From: a virus
Strand: one strand, 5' to 3'
IMG/VR virus record: IMGVR_UViG_3300023174_004998
Span: 1 to 64,000 of that record
Length of the DNA stretch: 64,000 bases
The position numbers were made by a program, and so were the translations under genes. The notes beneath the pieces are model-generated. The model saw only the letters and a program-made list of their open reading frames with translations. It was not told the origin of the DNA and ran no database searches. Shown here in pieces: positions 405 through 8,202 of this stretch (position 1 is its first letter; each line of letters starts with the position of its first letter).

Positions 405-442
405 TAAAACAGAAACCCCGGAGTGTTTAGTTCCGGGGCTCT
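405..442 (-). terminator. Intrinsic terminator of the attenuator
   Basis: CCCCGGA-ACTAAACAC-TCCGGGG followed by TTTCTGTTTT on the minus strand. Confidence 0.75.
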
Positions 443-468
443 GTGTAGAATAAGTTACTGTCTGACTT

Positions 469-585
469 CTACTCAGAACCCCTGACCCCGATCGCATCAT
501 TACGTAGGCAGGTGGGGTGCCACACGAGACTTGTTGGCTCCATCTGCTTAAATGATATCGAATAGGATCTTAAAGTTTTCATCAT
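469..585 (-). CDS. Putative attenuator leader peptide, 38 aa (MMKTLRSYSISFKQMEPTSLVWHPTCLRNDAIGVRGSE)
   Basis: ATG about 7 nt after a -10 box; its stop codon lies inside an antiterminator arm complementary to the terminator 5' arm. Confidence 0.6.
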   Translation of the reverse strand: MMKTLRSYSISFKQMEPTSLVWHPTCLRNDAIGVRGSE

Positions 586-592
586 AGTATCT

Positions 593-621
593 ATTGTATA
601 GGTTTATTTATACTGCGTCAA
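593..621 (-). promoter_or_regulatory. Sigma70-type promoter with embedded T4-like late promoter TATAAATA
   Basis: TTGACG-17nt-TACAAT; TATAAATA (605-612) lies in the spacer. Confidence 0.75.
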
Positions 622-690: not shown

Positions 691-1647
691 TCAAGCCTTT
701 TTGATGCGTTCAATGAGATTGTCACCAAAAGTTGATTCAAACTCATCATACACCACTTGCATACGAGCTTTCATGTCTGCTGTTTCTTCAGCAGTGGGTT
801 CGTATACACTCTTGCCTTCGCTGATCAAACGGTCACGAGCTTGTTCGCCATCAACGATGGTAGTCTGACGCTCATTGCGACCTGCTTGGATAGCGGCTGT
901 CTTGATCACAGCACGAACTTCGTCGCTGAGGCTGTCCCAGAAACGATCACCAATGATCATTGTGGTCAAGAACAAACTGTGTTTGCTGTCTACCACTGAC
1001 TGGATTACGTCATTCTGGCTCAATGGATAGATACGGCTATAAACTGTGTCATTGCCGTTGCAGTTACCGTTGGCAACATGCTCACGTGCTTCTTCTGTTT
1101 CGCACACAAATGGCTCAACACCACTCATGGTACGGATCACAGCACGACCCACTGGGTTACGATTTGAACGCAGTTTTTCACCAGTCAAATCACTCAATGT
1201 GCTCACTGGCTTGTTTACGCCCAAGCAACGGAAGCCGCCTGAGTATGTGTAAGCAAGTCCACGAACATTGCTGTTGTCTGTGAGTTTGGCCAACAATGTT
1301 TCGCCAACTTCACCTTCCAACACACGGCTAGCATGCTCATGGTCGCTGAAAATATAAGGCATTTCAAACGCCAAGAAGTCATGTTCATAGTGTTCAGCCA
1401 ACCAAGTGGTGTACATTTGACTCATTTCGATTTTGCCAGCTTCCATCAAGTCTAACAAATCGTGCTTGGTAACCACAATGCCATCATTATACTTGGCACT
1501 GTATTCATTCAGCGTCATTACTTCAATTTCAATTTTTTCGGCTGATTGTTGTGCATTGATTTCTTTTTCAAAATCTTGTGCGGCACGTACAAACAAGCTC
1601 AATGGTTCGTGGGCTATAACCCAACGAATTTTAGTTGTTTTGCTCAT
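691..1647 (-). CDS. TRAP-type substrate-binding protein (DctP family), no signal peptide
   Basis: FEMPYIFSDHEHASRVLEGEVG, GGFR, DLTGEKLRS, FWDSLSDEVRAVIKTAA motifs typical of DctP; N-terminus is not hydrophobic. Confidence 0.8.
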   Translation of the reverse strand: MSKTTKIRWVIAHEPLSLFVRAAQDFEKEINAQQSAEKIEIEVMTLNEYSAKYNDGIVVTKHDLLDLMEAGKIEMSQMYTTWLAEHYEHDFLAFEMPYIFSDHEHASRVLEGEVGETLLAKLTDNSNVRGLAYTYSGGFRCLGVNKPVSTLSDLTGEKLRSNRNPVGRAVIRTMSGVEPFVCETEEAREHVANGNCNGNDTVYSRIYPLSQNDVIQSVVDSKHSLFLTTMIIGDRFWDSLSDEVRAVIKTAAIQAGRNERQTTIVDGEQARDRLISEGKSVYEPTAEETADMKARMQVVYDEFESTFGDNLIERIKKA

Positions 1648-1677
1648 TTTAAATGAACTCCTGTTTAACTTAATATT

Positions 1678-1788
1678 GCTTGCGATAAATCGCGTACGGA
1701 CGGCGTTCTAGGCATATCATGCTAGTAAAAGGGTAAACTACCCTAGGCGTCTTTGTATCCGGCGTCGATCACCTGACCGGCGCTGCCA
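1678..1788 (-). ncRNA. Riboswitch-like cis-regulatory RNA, copy A (5' UTR of dctP-like gene)
   Basis: Same conserved cores (GCARCGCC, GACGYCGG, GACGCCT, ACGCC, CCGTA, AGC) and the same four-hairpin layout as 2737-2850. Confidence 0.65.
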
Positions 1789-1791
1789 TTT

Positions 1792-2706
1792 TTATTTATC
1801 CAACACAACACCTTGTGTTAGACGTTTCCATTGCACTAACTGTGAATTAAACCAGTTGTCCAACTGTGCGTCGGGCATTTGATTGTTGGGTACACAGTTG
1901 TCAGCGGCATTGGCATCGCGTACACTTTGAGCACGACTAGCTTCTACCAGTACTTTACGTATGCTGGCAAAGCGGTCTTCGCTGAGTTTACGGCTGGCAA
2001 AAATCTGCTGTGGTGTGCTCATATCCAACAAGTCCTTGCTAAAACCTTGATTGGCCAGCAATTCTGTGCCTTTGATGCTGTTGCGGCCAGTTTGCCCAAG
2101 CCAATACACTTGTTTAGCAGATCCAGGACCTGTGTACTGTTCGCTGTCACCGTGGAATCCCACTGAAAAATCCACTGATCCGTTGAGTACGCCCAGCAAA
2201 GCTTCGCTGGTGCTCTTGAATGGTACGATGTTTAAATTGGGGTAATTTTTAGCAATTTGAATACTGACCAAATGTGTAGTAGTTCCCATGCCGCTCATGC
2301 CAATTGATAGCTTGGCATCTTTGGGCACTTCTTTCCAGTTTTTGTATTTGACACTGCTGATCACAAACGGGCTCACACACATAGGCAGGATGCTACGAAA
2401 ATCCGCCATGCTGTGGCTGTCATTTGGGAACAAGTTGGGTCGAATAAATCCAGCAGAACTGTTGATCCACAGTGTGTTTGTGGGATTATTGTTGGTAAAG
2501 TTTGCGGCCACAGTACCTCCAGCGCCTGGCTTGGTGTCAAACAAAAATGTGTATTGATTCTGTAATTTGTTTGCTTCAGCAACCAAGGCTCGGTAGAAGT
2601 TGGCTGCATTGTCACCAGCACCCCAACTATAAGCCAGTGTGATGGATTCTTTTGCTACTGCGTTGATACTTAAAGTTGCCAATAAAATGGCCATGAATTT
2701 TTTCAT
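1792..2706 (-). CDS. Tripartite tricarboxylate transporter substrate-binding protein (Bug/TctC family)
   Basis: Signal peptide; KPGAGGTVA, SGMGTTTHL, VPFKSTSEALLGVLNGSVD motifs. Confidence 0.8.
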   Translation of the reverse strand: MKKFMAILLATLSINAVAKESITLAYSWGAGDNAANFYRALVAEANKLQNQYTFLFDTKPGAGGTVAANFTNNNPTNTLWINSSAGFIRPNLFPNDSHSMADFRSILPMCVSPFVISSVKYKNWKEVPKDAKLSIGMSGMGTTTHLVSIQIAKNYPNLNIVPFKSTSEALLGVLNGSVDFSVGFHGDSEQYTGPGSAKQVYWLGQTGRNSIKGTELLANQGFSKDLLDMSTPQQIFASRKLSEDRFASIRKVLVEASRAQSVRDANAADNCVPNNQMPDAQLDNWFNSQLVQWKRLTQGVVLDK

Positions 2707-2736
2707 GTTAATTTTCCTTTTTAGTTTAGTTTGGCA

Positions 2737-2850
2737 GCTCGTAGAGAACTCTACATACGGTATGGCGTCAACAGTGTCTACACTGATAAAGGATTGATTT
2801 CTCCAGGCGTCATTAAATACACCGACGTCAACATGATGTTGGCGTTGCTA
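2737..2850 (-). ncRNA. Riboswitch-like cis-regulatory RNA, copy B (5' UTR of Bug gene)
   Basis: Homologous to 1678-1788, with different hairpin sequences that keep base pairing. Confidence 0.65.
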
Positions 2851-2875
2851 GATTTTACTTAGTACAGTCCCGATA

Positions 2876-3805
2876 TCAACGTAATTTTTCTATGCCAGCC
2901 TGCTGTCTCACAGCTTCCCAGCGTTGGTATTGGCGCTGTATCCACTGTTCAGGATCTTGCACTGGACGACCCAGTTCTAATCCCAGGGCCTGCACACTGT
3001 TTCTGTAGGCTTCGCTTTCATTGAGACTGCGCAAAGTATTCAGCATCAATGCTTTGTCTCTCAGTGGAGTGTCTTTGCGCACAGCTACACCGTACCAACT
3101 GTAAAAACTAAATCCAGGAAGCACCTTTGAAAACAGTGTAGCTGACGGCACAGCAGGATTTGGAGAGTCGCTACTCACTGCCAATATTTTTAACCGGCCG
3201 CTGTTGTGAAATTGCAGTTGGCTTTGTATTGTGTCAAAGCTACACTCAATGGTGCCACTCATCAAGGCAGTGCTGACTTCACTGGCGCCTTTGAAGTTCA
3301 CGATTTCTACTTGTGTAAGACGCAGTTGTGACACCACATACTTGGTCAAAAACAGTGCTCCACTGTTGCTGACTCCGCAGTTGATGGGTTTGGTTCTGGC
3401 TTGTTTTATAAAATCCTGGAAGCTGGTGATACCGCTCTGGTTGCTGACCACTAGCACACTGGGACTTTGTGTCATAGGCAACACCATGTCAAAGTCTTTG
3501 ATTTGGTAACCAGGATCTTGATAAACCACATGATTAAACAAAAATGGCCCTGTGGCTGCCATCAACCAGGTATTGCCATCAGCTGGACGATCCAACACAT
3601 AGCGCACACCAACTCTGGCATCAGCGCCTGGTTTGTTGACCACTATTGTAGATATTTTGCTGTCTTCTTGCAGATGTTTTTGTATTATCCGTGCAAACGA
3701 ACTGACTACACCGCCGGGTGCATAAGGGCTGACCAGTTCTTTGACATCATTGGCCTGTGCTGACATGGCCATCAGTGCTGTAACTAATGATAGAATAAGT
3801 TTCAT
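2876..3805 (-). CDS. Second Bug/TctC-family substrate-binding protein
   Basis: Signal peptide; PYAPGG, VVNKPGA, PADGNT, FKGASEVSTALMSG, GRLKILAVSS, WYGVAV motifs. Confidence 0.85.
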   Translation of the reverse strand: MKLILSLVTALMAMSAQANDVKELVSPYAPGGVVSSFARIIQKHLQEDSKISTIVVNKPGADARVGVRYVLDRPADGNTWLMAATGPFLFNHVVYQDPGYQIKDFDMVLPMTQSPSVLVVSNQSGITSFQDFIKQARTKPINCGVSNSGALFLTKYVVSQLRLTQVEIVNFKGASEVSTALMSGTIECSFDTIQSQLQFHNSGRLKILAVSSDSPNPAVPSATLFSKVLPGFSFYSWYGVAVRKDTPLRDKALMLNTLRSLNESEAYRNSVQALGLELGRPVQDPEQWIQRQYQRWEAVRQQAGIEKLR

Positions 3806-4335
3806 AAAAGTCCTTTGGTTGAATTAAGATTTATCTGTAGCGTGACACGGATATCAATTAAATCTTCCACGCTGTGCGGATATCTTCCGTCAACAAGATA
3901 CCAGCAACCTTGAGGTGTATCCACGCGATTTTCAGCAGTCAACTGATCGTAATTGTCAAACAGCTGACCTCGTGATTGATCTAGGTCATGGTTGGCTGCA
4001 GACCAAAATTGCAAATATCCATTGGCTGGATCAATCACGTGTAGCAGTGCATAATCACGTGTGGCATCACAGTGTGGACCGTGGCAGTTCATTCCAGTAC
4101 TGCCATATTGATATCTCATACCTATTTTGTCAATGTCCGCAGATATGTGAGCATGAACCCAATTGATAATGTCTTGATTGGCTTGATAAAAGCAACCGTG
4201 AGATGTGGTCTGTGGTTGATTGTTTCTAGTAACAACCCGCCCGGGAAACTGTCGAATCAACTCTGCCTGATCAGGATCATAGGTAGAATATACAGATTCA
4301 GGCAAAGTAGGAAAGTCAAAGAACTTTACTTGCAT
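3802..4335 (-). CDS. Putative 2OG-Fe(II) oxygenase/cupin-fold protein
   Basis: HxD (PHCDATR), distal H (YPHSVE) and R (IRVTLQI). Confidence 0.5.
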   Translation of the reverse strand: MQVKFFDFPTLPESVYSTYDPDQAELIRQFPGRVVTRNNQPQTTSHGCFYQANQDIINWVHAHISADIDKIGMRYQYGSTGMNCHGPHCDATRDYALLHVIDPANGYLQFWSAANHDLDQSRGQLFDNYDQLTAENRVDTPQGCWYLVDGRYPHSVEDLIDIRVTLQINLNSTKGLL

Positions 4336-4337
4336 GA

Positions 4338-5522
4338 TTAGAATTTAAAATGCAAATTGGTTCCTGGATCTTCAAAGTCTGCTTCACCTAGATAGTAAAA
4401 GGGACTGATAAATCCCACCAGGCCCACCGGACGACCCATTTCATTGTTGAAGAACTTGGGATCAATGTTGTCTGTGAGATATCGCAAACCGCTCTGCCAC
4501 ACACGATACGCATGAGTTTCTCGGAAGTTGACATAAAACCAGTAGTCCATTTCATTGTAGAAACTGTTGGTAGGTTTGGCAGTCTGGAATGTTGTAGGAT
4601 CATAATCAGGGTAAATCAAGGGCTTGACAATGTGTTCAAAAGCTGTGCGTTGTGTAAAGTTATAGTTGGGCCAACGTACCAGATGTTGTAGATATTTGTT
4701 GGTTTCAAGATTAAACCAGTTCTTGATCACATGAGCTTGTTTGATTATCATTTCTGGCAGATCAGGGCTCCAAAAAAAGTATTCGTTTGAAGCATTGGTA
4801 TAGCCAGCAAGATCTGGGTTGGCAGCATTGGCCTGTATGTCCATGAAATATAGATACCACTTTTTATCCTTGACGCAGACCTTGGGCTTGTCTACTCCCC
4901 AAAGTACACACACTCGCAGACCTTGGTCCAGTGTGCGTTTGTGATCGTCCACAGCATCTACAGTGTGTTTGAAAGGATGCCCTGGTTGAAAGTAATCTCT
5001 GGTTTTAAACACCCAAGACTCATCGTGCGTACTGACCAGCATGTCTTCGCTGTAGTCATGTATGGTGATTTTGGTTCTAGGGCTTTGCACAGATATCCAG
5101 TTTAACAATGGCAAGGCCGCATATTTTGCTTCACTGAGAGTGTTTTCAGGCTTGGTGTTGAAAGGGTCGTCGGCTACATTCTTTTCACCAGTTTTGGGAT
5201 AACGAAATACCACTTCATCTAAGTGTATGCCATTGTTGATAAAAGCATAGGCCACTGTGGCCGAGTCCGCGCCGCCGGAAAATTCCAGTCTGATATAGTC
5301 ATAACGGTCACGGATCTGTTGTGCTCGCATACGATACAGATTTTGTAAATCAGTACCAGGCTCAATGGAAGCATCTAAACTGGAAAATAATTCTTGGTTG
5401 AAATTCCACTGTGGGAATTCACCGGTAGTAGTGGCTTCTATCAAGGCTTCGGGTTTTGAATAAAACCTTTTTTGACCTACTGTGTAGAAACCTAATTTGG
5501 GATTTTGTTCTAGGAGATTCAT
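4338..5522 (-). CDS. PP-loop (adenine nucleotide alpha-hydrolase-like) ATPase, unknown substrate
   Basis: LEFSGGADS PP-loop and GVDKP motif; lacks the C-terminal QueC zinc-binding Cys cluster. Confidence 0.6.
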   Translation of the reverse strand: MNLLEQNPKLGFYTVGQKRFYSKPEALIEATTTGEFPQWNFNQELFSSLDASIEPGTDLQNLYRMRAQQIRDRYDYIRLEFSGGADSATVAYAFINNGIHLDEVVFRYPKTGEKNVADDPFNTKPENTLSEAKYAALPLLNWISVQSPRTKITIHDYSEDMLVSTHDESWVFKTRDYFQPGHPFKHTVDAVDDHKRTLDQGLRVCVLWGVDKPKVCVKDKKWYLYFMDIQANAANPDLAGYTNASNEYFFWSPDLPEMIIKQAHVIKNWFNLETNKYLQHLVRWPNYNFTQRTAFEHIVKPLIYPDYDPTTFQTAKPTNSFYNEMDYWFYVNFRETHAYRVWQSGLRYLTDNIDPKFFNNEMGRPVGLVGFISPFYYLGEADFEDPGTNLHFKF

Positions 5523-5561
5523 GGCAGAGTATTTAAACGCTGGCCTCTGCCATGAATAGAT

Positions 5562-6074
5562 TTAGCTGTTGAGAACACGAGCAACCGAAGTGATCACAGC
5601 CGCAATACGACCAATGTCGCGAAGTTGTTCTACAGTGTAGCCTTCCTTCTTGAGAGTTTCGTAGTGCGCTTTTACGCAGAAGTGGCACTTGCCAACGATA
5701 CTGGCAGCTAGACTGTAGCTCTCAAATCGAGCCTTGGTCGTTCCACCATGAGAGCTAATAGCATTCATGCGTAGTTGTGCTGGCAAACCAGTGAGACGCT
5801 CGTCTTCAGCCATTTCAACATAGGGATACCATACATTGTTCATAGCCATTAAACTAGCGGCTGTCAATGCCGCATCTCTTTCAGTGGCATCTTCCAGGTC
5901 TGACTGTATAAATGTAACGAGTTTGCCATTGCCTGTTGCCATAGCGGCTGCGAGAGCACAGCCATTGGCTTCAACAAGATCAAGAGTGCTACGATTGACA
6001 ACGCTGTCAAGATTGAGACGTGTGTCTTTTGCATAGTCTGGCAATGCCTCCTTTATTGTATCTACCCAACTCAT
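5562..6074 (-). CDS. ahpD: Alkyl hydroperoxide reductase AhpD
   Basis: LPDYAKDTRLNL, MAMNNVWY, CHFCVKAH; translationally coupled to ahpC. Confidence 0.92.
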   Translation of the reverse strand: MSWVDTIKEALPDYAKDTRLNLDSVVNRSTLDLVEANGCALAAAMATGNGKLVTFIQSDLEDATERDAALTAASLMAMNNVWYPYVEMAEDERLTGLPAQLRMNAISSHGGTTKARFESYSLAASIVGKCHFCVKAHYETLKKEGYTVEQLRDIGRIAAVITSVARVLNS

Positions 6075-6613
6075 TACAGAGTCTCTCCACCCACAGAACG
6101 ATTACAAGCACAGAGTTCACCAGTTTGTAGCGCATCTAACACACGCAATGTTTCTTCTGGGCTACGACCCACGTTCAAATTGTTCACAGTGACGTGTTGG
6201 ATAACGTTGTCTGGGTCAACGATAAAAGTGGCGCGAAGTGCGGCACCTGCTGGCGCATAGAATACACCCAGCTGATTGATCAAGCTCAACTCACCACGCT
6301 GTGTATCAGCGAACTGATAATGTGTGATCTTTTGTAGATCTGGATGTGCTTGTTGCCAGCTCACTTTGCAGAACTCATTGTCTGTTGAACCTGTAAGCAA
6401 CACAGCATCACGGTCTTCGAAGTCTTTGGCTAACTTGTCGTATGCCACGATTTCTGTTGGGCATACAAATGTAAAGTCCTTTGGATAGTAAACGATCACT
6501 TTCCACTTGCCTTCGTATGACTTCTCCGTGATGTCAAAGAATGCATCTTTTGGTTGTCCTGGACGGACTCCAGTCAATGCAAATGCCTCTAATTTATCTC
6601 CTACTGTTTTCAT
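6074..6613 (-). CDS. ahpC: Peroxiredoxin AhpC
   Basis: YPKDFTFVCPTE, RATFIVDP, VGRSPEETLRVLDALQ, resolving LCAC. Confidence 0.95.
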   Translation of the reverse strand: MKTVGDKLEAFALTGVRPGQPKDAFFDITEKSYEGKWKVIVYYPKDFTFVCPTEIVAYDKLAKDFEDRDAVLLTGSTDNEFCKVSWQQAHPDLQKITHYQFADTQRGELSLINQLGVFYAPAGAALRATFIVDPDNVIQHVTVNNLNVGRSPEETLRVLDALQTGELCACNRSVGGETL

Positions 6614-8090: not shown

Positions 8091-8165
8091 TGGTGGGCCT
8101 ACTAAGAATTGAACTTAGACTCAATCGATTATGAGTCGACTGCTTTACCATTAAGCTATAGGCCC
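8091..8165 (-). tRNA. tRNA with CAT anticodon, most like tRNA-Ile2 (lysidine type); encoded CCA
   Basis: GGGCCTA/TAGGCCC acceptor stem, TGGTAAAG D-loop, TCGA-CTCATAA-TCGA anticodon arm, TTCAATT T-loop, ACCA end; anticodon arm resembles bacterial ileX. Confidence 0.9.
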
Positions 8166-8173
8166 ATGTGTAT

Positions 8174-8202
8174 ATTGTAGCAGAGTAGAGATTATTTGTC
8201 AA
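8174..8202 (-). promoter_or_regulatory. Near-consensus sigma70 promoter for the tRNA
   Basis: TTGACA-17-TACAAT, ending 8 nt before the tRNA 5' end. Confidence 0.85.

Follow-up and report, generated by a model that had tools for sequence, protein, structure and literature searches.

The leader attenuators of enterobacteria (trpL, hisL and pheL, and the multivalent thrL and ilvGMEDA) consist of a promoter-proximal short open reading frame (ORF), a terminator placed before the genes, and an antiterminator that overlaps the terminator. T-box riboswitches are attenuators that read the tRNA pool by means of competing terminator and antiterminator helices. Their ligand is uncharged tRNA, which they recognise directly by means of a specifier codon together with the T-box sequence; they work without a ribosome and control aminoacyl-tRNA synthetase and amino-acid genes. 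In leader-peptide attenuation (PMC1183508), a ribosome at the stop codon masks the 5′ arm of the antiterminator, and an earlier stall results in read-through. The trn operon of Anabaena sp. PCC 7120 has about 26 accessory tRNA genes that are kept low and are induced when translation is impaired (PMC8421152, PMC10272220). This control acts on the promoter, where the ribbon-helix-helix (RHH) repressor TrcR sits on direct repeats over the -10 element and the start site (PMC8421152, PMC10272220), and the main text of PMC8421152 does not contain the words attenuat-, leader, or terminator. Here I describe an element on the minus strand at one end of a 64,000-nucleotide (nt) stretch of DNA, hereafter the window, which is the first 64 kilobases (kb) of the 96.5-kb virus record IMGVR_UViG_3300023174_004998 (estimated completeness 26%). 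Judging from its sequence, the element is probably (at roughly 70%) a multivalent, trp-style ribosome-mediated transcription attenuator that heads a phage tRNA array and is opened by slow decoding.

The element lies between a DctP-like gene (1647-691, Pfam PF03480) and the contig end (Table 1). Its relatives were collected in two ways. The first sample was obtained from loci around DctP homologues and with a covariance model of the hairpin-terminator region, and consists of 25 instances, 22 of them distinct. The second, independent sample was drawn from IMG/VR with only a 19-nt pattern (the terminator loop and the 3′ arm) and consists of 80 loci. In summary, the layout is kept in more than 100 loci of related uncultured jumbo phages. 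The first sample includes lineages whose leader sequences can barely be aligned, yet the order of the parts is identical. In the second sample, 75 of the 80 loci have the leader ORF, whose stop codon lies 34-43 nt before the terminator loop, and most have the same promoter; three loci without an ORF and without tRNAs resemble chance matches. What was observed directly is the set of sequence features and how these are conserved and covary, the association with tRNA arrays, and which amino acids the leaders contain. An earlier reading made from the letters of the window only (hereafter the sequence-only reading) had proposed that a ribosome on the leader ORF chooses between an antiterminator and a terminator. 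The large number of loci, the covariation of both helices, the fixed distance of the stop codon, and the conserved ORF lend comparative support to this proposal and suggest that such a choice is made. At the sequence level, the element has what an attenuator should have: a terminator before the regulated genes, a mutually exclusive antiterminator, and a stop codon placed for selection by the ribosome.

The last codons of the leader ORF, together with its stop codon, had been predicted to pair with a segment overlapping the 5′ arm of the terminator. It was found that residues 482-467 pair with residues 450-435 and that the four C residues at 438-435 are common to the antiterminator and terminator helices. 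The 193-nt leader fold beats 200 of 200 shuffled sequences (z = -3.6). Both conformers came out of the folding: in the minimum free energy (MFE) structure of the free leader, the long antiterminator hairpin is formed and the terminator is disrupted, and the centroid fold has the terminator instead. The terminator was missed by a simple terminator scan because its 9-nt loop exceeds the 8-nt limit of that scan. No upstream helix of the 1:2 type that would sequester the antiterminator arm was found in the fold of the leader. A scan of positions 1-1200 against Rfam 15 at E <= 1 found nothing over 405-592 and two weak matches over the upstream terminator and the promoter; a known RNA family (a riboswitch, a T-box, or a small RNA in Rfam) was thus rejected. 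In the lake metatranscriptomes, three RNA runs have short contigs over 402-552 and 133-334 at a depth of 2-3, and none covers 343-399. These contigs are too sparse to report on termination or read-through.

Are the two helices conserved in the relatives? The covariation alignment comprises 19 distinct sequences placed on the model, in which the four outer antiterminator pairs are not modelled as pairs, and thus the alignment does not favour them. The antiterminator is paired in 86.4% of the cells, with compensatory changes in 12 of 16 pairs, and slid controls reach at most 52%. Compensatory changes in the antiterminator were likewise seen in a smaller sequence set. The terminator is paired in 99.2% of the cells, with compensatory changes in four of seven pairs. 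The column shared by the two helices is C or U. Its upstream antiterminator partner is G or A (GC in 7 sequences, AU in 6, and GU in 4), and so is its partner in the 3′ arm of the terminator (CG in 9, UG in 6, and UA in 4). The sequence-only reading had held that attenuation would be refuted if the antiterminator pairing were not conserved in related phages; the pairing is conserved and covaries.

The competition between the helices was also seen in the folds of the individual members. In 15 of the 22 members, the MFE structure of the free RNA sequesters the C-run of the terminator. The sequence upstream sequesters three to seven nucleotides of the terminator arm in all 22 members, always more than the mean of the shuffled sequences, and the energies of the antiterminator state have z-scores from -0.8 to -6.6. 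Once the nucleotides under a ribosome at the stop codon are masked, the terminator forms in 22 of 22 members. In every member, the stop codon falls within the antiterminator 5′ arm or just past it, and 26-33 nt separate it from the terminator stem that follows. A published reporter study measured about 90% termination when the stop codon lay 28 nt upstream of the terminator, compared with less than 10% when it lay at 5 nt (PMC4824070). Thus, a ribosome at the stop codon should cover the antiterminator arm without hindering the terminator.

The essentially leaderless 38-codon ORF of the sequence-only reading is present at 585-469 as described, and its frame is conserved in the relatives. The first ATG is located 7 nt past the -10 element, and thus the mRNA would be leaderless or nearly so, with a few nucleotides at most. 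The ATG is 6-10 nt past the -10 element in 16 of 21 members; the others have a longer 5′ untranslated region with a purine-rich ribosome-binding site, such as the AAGGA sequence 8-9 nt upstream of the leader ATG in locus L070. The ORF is open in every member of the first sample, for which the joint chance is about 1e-10.7 over 11 strongly diverged representatives treated as independent. Among the close relatives, locus L011 has diverged most, and the three indels in its ORF all keep the frame. The pairwise ratio of nonsynonymous to synonymous changes (pN/pS) is 0.08-0.87 in 15 of 16 close pairs. The length of the ORF is 25-53 codons in the first sample and 20-74 codons across the family. The open frames, the in-frame indels, the pN/pS values mostly below 1, and the position of the ATG suggest that the leader ORF is real and is probably translated. 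Its peptide has no Pfam or PHROG match, and the peptides of different lineages have almost nothing in common beyond their content of all 20 amino acids. A Trp codon is nearly invariant in the leaders; it pairs with an upstream CCA in a conserved hairpin (15 of 20 leaders) and matches a tRNA-Trp in the arrays. An arrest peptide with a WHP segment is conceivable, but the idea found no support and is not needed.

What does the leader sample? In the window, the 37 residues that follow the initiator include all 20 amino acids, with P = 0.003 when windows of phage proteins are the reference and P = 0.007 when the reference is shuffles of the leader's bases that remain open. The same is true of 36 of the 62 distinct leaders in the second sample, an about 30-fold enrichment, since 2000 random sets contained 1.2 such leaders on average and never more than 5. 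The earlier suggestion that the leader senses general translation stress was thereby sharpened. The sensing part of the window leader (about the first 30 codons) contains 18 of the 20 amino acids, and Ala and Gly occur only in the tail encoded by the antiterminator arm. Leaders with a restricted composition mirror small tRNA blocks (L150/L151/L174, L111, L140, L102a, and L102b). A leader of 20-22 residues made of L, N, T, G, A, E, and D (plus R) precedes tRNA genes for Gly, Glu, Ala, Leu, Ile, Asp, Asn, and Thr. Another leader lacks D, H, R, V, and Y and precedes a block of ten isotypes that lacks exactly the same five. The L102b leader includes the tripeptide DYE and stands before a Glu-Tyr-Asp block, and the next leader, L102a, lacks D, E, and Y, as does its block. 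In 15 cluster representatives with complete blocks, 182 of the 191 block isotypes occur in their own leader, and the leader-block permutation gave P = 0.02.

In the relatives, tRNA genes follow the element. For each of the 25 instances of the first sample, the distance to co-oriented tRNA genes downstream is 115-1753 nt, and the stretches of sequence covered by these loci contain arrays of up to 29. Searches of the whole records of four relatives gave 31, 26, 12, and 28 tRNA matches, and the element is directly upstream of the main array in each. In the second sample, a co-oriented tRNA gene lies within 2 kb in 48 of the 51 loci with more than 1.5 kb of room, and the arrays contain up to 41 tRNA genes. 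The sequence-only reading had guessed at a tRNA or non-coding RNA (ncRNA) array outside the window, and this was borne out in all relatives with enough downstream sequence. The closest relative for the region (L050/L017) is 89% identical over about 600 nt and has its first tRNA gene 502 nt past the terminator. One phage has a pair of attenuators, one after the other (L102:14598-14764 and L102:17133-17346; also L064:16802-16968); each of the two stands in front of a separate tRNA block, and their leaders are complementary. A 'DYE'-type element was not found upstream of the Glu/Asp/Tyr block of L070, where there is only a promoter and an unrelated small ORF. The element does not stand before all tRNA clusters; small clusters behind a membrane-protein gene (L103, L066, and L097) have a plain promoter and no element. 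A lone tRNA-Met gene in the window (8091-8165, minus strand) is behind a strong TTGACA-17-TACAAT promoter at 8202 and has no leader ORF. Thus, it is likely that only the main arrays are gated.

In the proposed mechanism, host RNA polymerase would start at the sigma70 promoter and produce a transcript whose 5′ end is at or beside the AUG of the 38-codon ORF, so that a ribosome could load once the 5′ end has emerged. When translation to the stop codon is fast, the ribosome would cover the G-rich 5′ arm (482-467), the C-run at 438-435 would remain free, and the terminator would form, ending the transcript at 415-406. If no ribosome is present, or if it stalls before about codon 30, the G-rich arm would pair with 450-435, no terminator would form, and the polymerase would read through. 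It would then pass the small ORF and the structured RNA downstream and, as in the relatives, reach an array of up to about 40 tRNA genes. Slow decoding at the codons of any amino acid would thus lead to more tRNA production. Since each amino acid is present once or a few times in the leader, the leader may function as a multivalent gauge of decoding speed. Because no upstream helix that would sequester the antiterminator arm was found, read-through is the predicted outcome for untranslated RNA, in contrast to the trp leader. The match between leaders and blocks at the level of amino acids is not accompanied by a codon preference, and thus the gauge, if there is one, would sample amino acids (the host and phage tRNA pools together) and not phage anticodons. 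The sampling is perhaps through slowly decoded codons. The leaders use less-preferred codons than the phage genes (21 of 22 are below the phage mean), and such less-preferred, non-cognate codons could make the gauge more sensitive.

Several points weigh against the attenuator. I infer, rather than observe, the start of transcription, the translation of the ORF, termination and its dependence on the position of the ribosome, read-through, and the physiological signal. The array of the source phage is likewise seen only through the relatives, since the window contig stops 403 nt past the terminator, about where the array would start; a contig in the source run extends 157 nt beyond window position 1. 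In 7 of the 22 members, the terminator is the MFE structure without a ribosome, or the two states are close in energy. The overlap of the helices is as small as 3-4 nt in some cases, and the shuffle tests of sequestration are individually weak for each element. The 9-nt loop is long for an intrinsic terminator, and the conservation of its sequence hints at an additional factor. The pairing of the Trp codon with CCA suggests that a part of the 'peptide' conservation may be RNA conservation. The matching of leaders and blocks beyond the presence of all 20 amino acids is modestly significant. Exact Watson-Crick cognates of the phage anticodons are not enriched in the leaders but depleted (z = -2.2; z = -3.05), and synonymous codons that phage tRNAs decode by wobble are not preferred (z = 0.79; z = 0.54). 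A design in which the leader codons match the phage anticodons was rejected, as neither exact nor wobble-readable codons are enriched. The low codon adaptation could reflect a structural constraint instead of design.

Could the leader ORF be an ordinary small-protein gene with a leaky terminator, in which the 38-residue peptide is the relevant product? The hairpin at its stop codon would then stabilise or process the mRNA, and the array would be expressed by constitutive read-through or from other promoters. The pN/pS values below 1 do indicate some amino-acid constraint, yet the peptides have no Pfam or PHROG match and resemble each other across lineages only in the all-20 content, which is unexpected for a folded or binding protein. 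The terminator that forms without a ribosome in 7 of 22 members would suit a leaky terminator, as would the metatranscriptome contigs at 402-552 and 133-334, which are separate, with none bridging the terminator at their very low depth. However, the shared nucleotide covaries with both helices, the stop codon's location relative to the hairpin is fixed despite an ORF length of 20-74 codons, and restricted leaders track restricted tRNA blocks. Furthermore, in L092 and L070 the conserved downstream RNA, whose first hairpin covaries, begins 5-18 nt after the U tract, which leaves no room for another promoter before it. Only read-through of the terminator can make that RNA, and thus the terminator appears to be conditional by design. 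A small-protein gene of this kind is therefore unlikely.

The conserved loop raises the question of whether the attenuator is controlled by a factor. A phage or host protein or RNA might decide termination by binding the loop ACUAAACAC, possibly along with the similar segment CACU..AAACA in the RNA downstream, and leader translation would then be secondary. The 9-nt terminator loop is nearly invariant across lineages while the stem covaries and the leaders vary. The loop ACTAAACAC (423-431, minus strand) resembles the CACU..AAACA segment, a related motif in a conserved RNA, and the ATAAATA box of the promoter spacer is conserved as well. No candidate binding protein was identified, and the downstream CACU is better explained by a covarying internal AGUG:CACU helix (AAUG:CAUU in L091). 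Another candidate considered was pairing between the terminator loop and an AGUGUU sequence that precedes the downstream RNA; four or five base pairs (bp) are possible, they show no covariation, and the AGUG:CACU helix explains the segment better. The all-20 leaders and the fixed stop position would be left unexplained by a factor, which could coexist with ribosome control instead of replacing it. Control by a factor in place of the ribosome is thus quite improbable. That the terminated transcript of about 180 nt is a stand-alone small regulatory RNA acting in trans, with the ORF incidental or a second function, is very improbable: the strong promoter, the stable fold (z = -3.6), the own terminator, the conservation of group-A sequences even at synonymous sites, and the trans action of another terminated attenuator RNA, rnTrpL (PMC6614838), would fit, but there is no Rfam match and no known target, the primary sequence is unconserved between lineages whereas the ORF, the stop position, and the amino-acid coverage are conserved, and such an activity would at most be an added function.

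The ribosome-mediated attenuator may be extended, more speculatively, to a defence function. The all-20 leader would then be a universal decoding-speed gauge that registers when any host tRNA is depleted or cleaved, as anticodon nucleases and other tRNA-targeting defences might do, and the replacement array would be transcribed only in that event. The conserved terminator loop and the downstream RNA would form a second, factor-dependent checkpoint or a processing module of a new RNA class. I regard this extended version as tentative and rather doubtful.

The features of the locus are summarised in Table 1.

Table 1. Features of the element and its surroundings in the window.
Feature	Position	Strand	Basis and remarks
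Intrinsic terminator of the upstream DctP-like gene (1647-691)	646-672	minus-strand reading	terminator scan, sequence; conserved in relatives
Sigma70-type promoter: -35 TTGACG (621-616), 17-nt spacer, -10 TACAAT (598-593)	593-621	minus	10/12 consensus
TATAAATA box within the promoter spacer, candidate second promoter or operator	605-612	minus	single copy in 64 kb
Leader ORF, 38 codons, ATGATG start, TAG stop (471-469), all 20 amino acids	469-585	minus	ORF list
Antiterminator 5′ arm, last four codons and stop codon	467-482	minus	helix 86% paired in relatives, 12/16 pairs compensatory
Antiterminator 3′ arm, ending in the four C (438-435) with which the terminator 5′ arm begins	435-450	minus	complementarity
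Terminator hairpin CCCCGGA/TCCGGGG, 7-bp GC-rich stem, 9-nt loop ACTAAACAC	416-438	minus	99% paired, 4/7 pairs compensatory
U-rich tract of the terminator	406-415	minus	sequence; conserved in all members
Small ORF, 59 codons, TTG start, AAGGA ribosome-binding site	205-384	minus	directly after the terminator; no known family
Structured RNA, conserved, past the terminator and ahead of the tRNA array	~103-198	minus	e.g. L092:17377-17467, L070:15588-15676; no Rfam match

At the upstream boundary, the DctP gene is closed by its own terminator (672-646), and thus the leader is isolated as a separate transcription unit. A TTGACN-17-TAnAAT promoter is present in 21 of the 22 members of the first sample and in 53 distinct leaders of the independent set. 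The sequence-only reading had seen a dual sigma70 and late promoter here. Its sigma70 part was supported by the match to consensus and by conservation; its late part was not, as TATAAATA occurs once in the 64-kb window compared with 1.9 copies expected by chance. No copy was found elsewhere in the 96.5-kb record. The single copy gives no sign that the phage uses the box as a general late promoter, and a T4-type late promoter, for which TATAAATA should recur upstream of late genes, was rejected. The ATAAATA sequence is present within the promoter spacer, in two registers, in 17 of 21 relatives of the first sample and in 32 of 53 in the second. Across the whole record, ATAAATA occurs 11 times on the minus strand and not at all on the plus strand. 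A candidate second promoter at 384-356 (11/12 consensus) lies inside the coding sequence of the small ORF, which starts with TTG (ATG in L053), and is probably fortuitous.

In many relatives, homologues of the small ORF, beginning with ..EKIDY.., are found at the same place (the one in L053 starts with ATG); in the remaining relatives, that place is taken by a short ORF that is unrelated and resembles a coiled coil, or it has no ORF. The structured RNA that follows has a 5-bp hairpin with an invariant AACGAGG loop and compensatory changes in four of its five pairs. Its other parts are the AGUG:CACU helix, a single-stranded AAACGGGCGG motif, and further variable hairpins. The RNA may act in processing, bind a protein, or represent a new class of ncRNA with which phage tRNA precursors begin.

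The bearer is an uncultured jumbo phage, and the family belongs to a large clade of freshwater jumbo phages. Relatives with the same DctP-like gene are contigs of 315-357 kb, some of which are rated 99-100% complete, and the DNA runs containing the sequence are lake and freshwater metagenomes. Searches of 50,697 phage records with the region (blastn) and with the DctP protein (tblastn) gave no cultured relative. Host DNA had been suspected because of the DctP and TctC neighbours and was ruled out, since the window is from a virus contig of IMG/VR and the 315-357-kb relatives have the same genes. A repeated cassette was also ruled out, as the element is single-copy in the 96.5-kb record. The host-like genes (691-6613, minus strand) encode the DctP-family protein, two solute-binding proteins of the TctC/Bug family, an AhpC/TSA peroxiredoxin, and a protein of the CMD family. 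The ORFs that were checked include no membrane partner for a transporter. Judging by the Bug proteins, the host may be a betaproteobacterium. The record of L003/L055 (G004) has one of the closest DctP genes (92%), has no tRNA match in 317 kb, and ends 7.5 kb past the DctP gene. It seems that this assembly, like the window, breaks at or before the tRNA array.

The regulation of phage tRNA genes has hardly been studied, and the reason why phages have tRNAs is debated between codon compensation and escape from tRNA-targeting defence. Full-text searches on phage tRNA attenuation returned no published account of attenuators before phage tRNA arrays. If the attenuator works in the way proposed, ribosome feedback would set how much tRNA is made across a large clade of freshwater jumbo phages, and trp-type attenuation would extend from amino-acid biosynthesis to tRNA supply and from a single amino acid or a few of them to the full set of twenty. 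At about 215 nt, the element is compact, and it could serve as a general reporter of decoding speed. The more than 100 loci are enough for strong comparative tests and include natural variants with restricted leaders before restricted blocks.

How does the element compare with the known systems? According to PMC10264068 and PMC11464382, the tRNA sets of T5-like phages counter host tRNA-targeting defences such as PARIS. These studies provide a reason to couple tRNA output to decoding failure, and they concern the function of tRNAs and not transcriptional regulation. The Anabaena trn operon, the nearest published functional parallel found, follows the same physiological logic as that proposed for the phage element. 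However, it is located on a cyanobacterial megaplasmid and is controlled by a repressor, whereas the phage element would act by attenuation. The T-box riboswitches resemble the element in that competing helices report on the tRNA pool; in contrast, the phage element has no T-box match in Rfam and would depend on the ribosome. Like the enterobacterial leaders, the element has a short ORF, an intrinsic terminator, and an overlapping antiterminator, and thrL and ilvGMEDA also mix several amino acids. Unlike in those leaders, the targets are phage tRNA genes and not biosynthetic enzymes, the leader has no run of one regulatory codon and samples all 20 amino acids, the mRNA is leaderless in most members, and the terminator loop is conserved. 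The trp leader superattenuates when it is not translated, whereas no anti-antiterminator helix was found in the phage element, and its untranslated RNA is predicted to read through. Thus, the element shares its parts and its proposed logic with classical attenuators, and it differs in the tRNA-gene target, the phage bearer, the leaderless start, and the leader of all amino acids.

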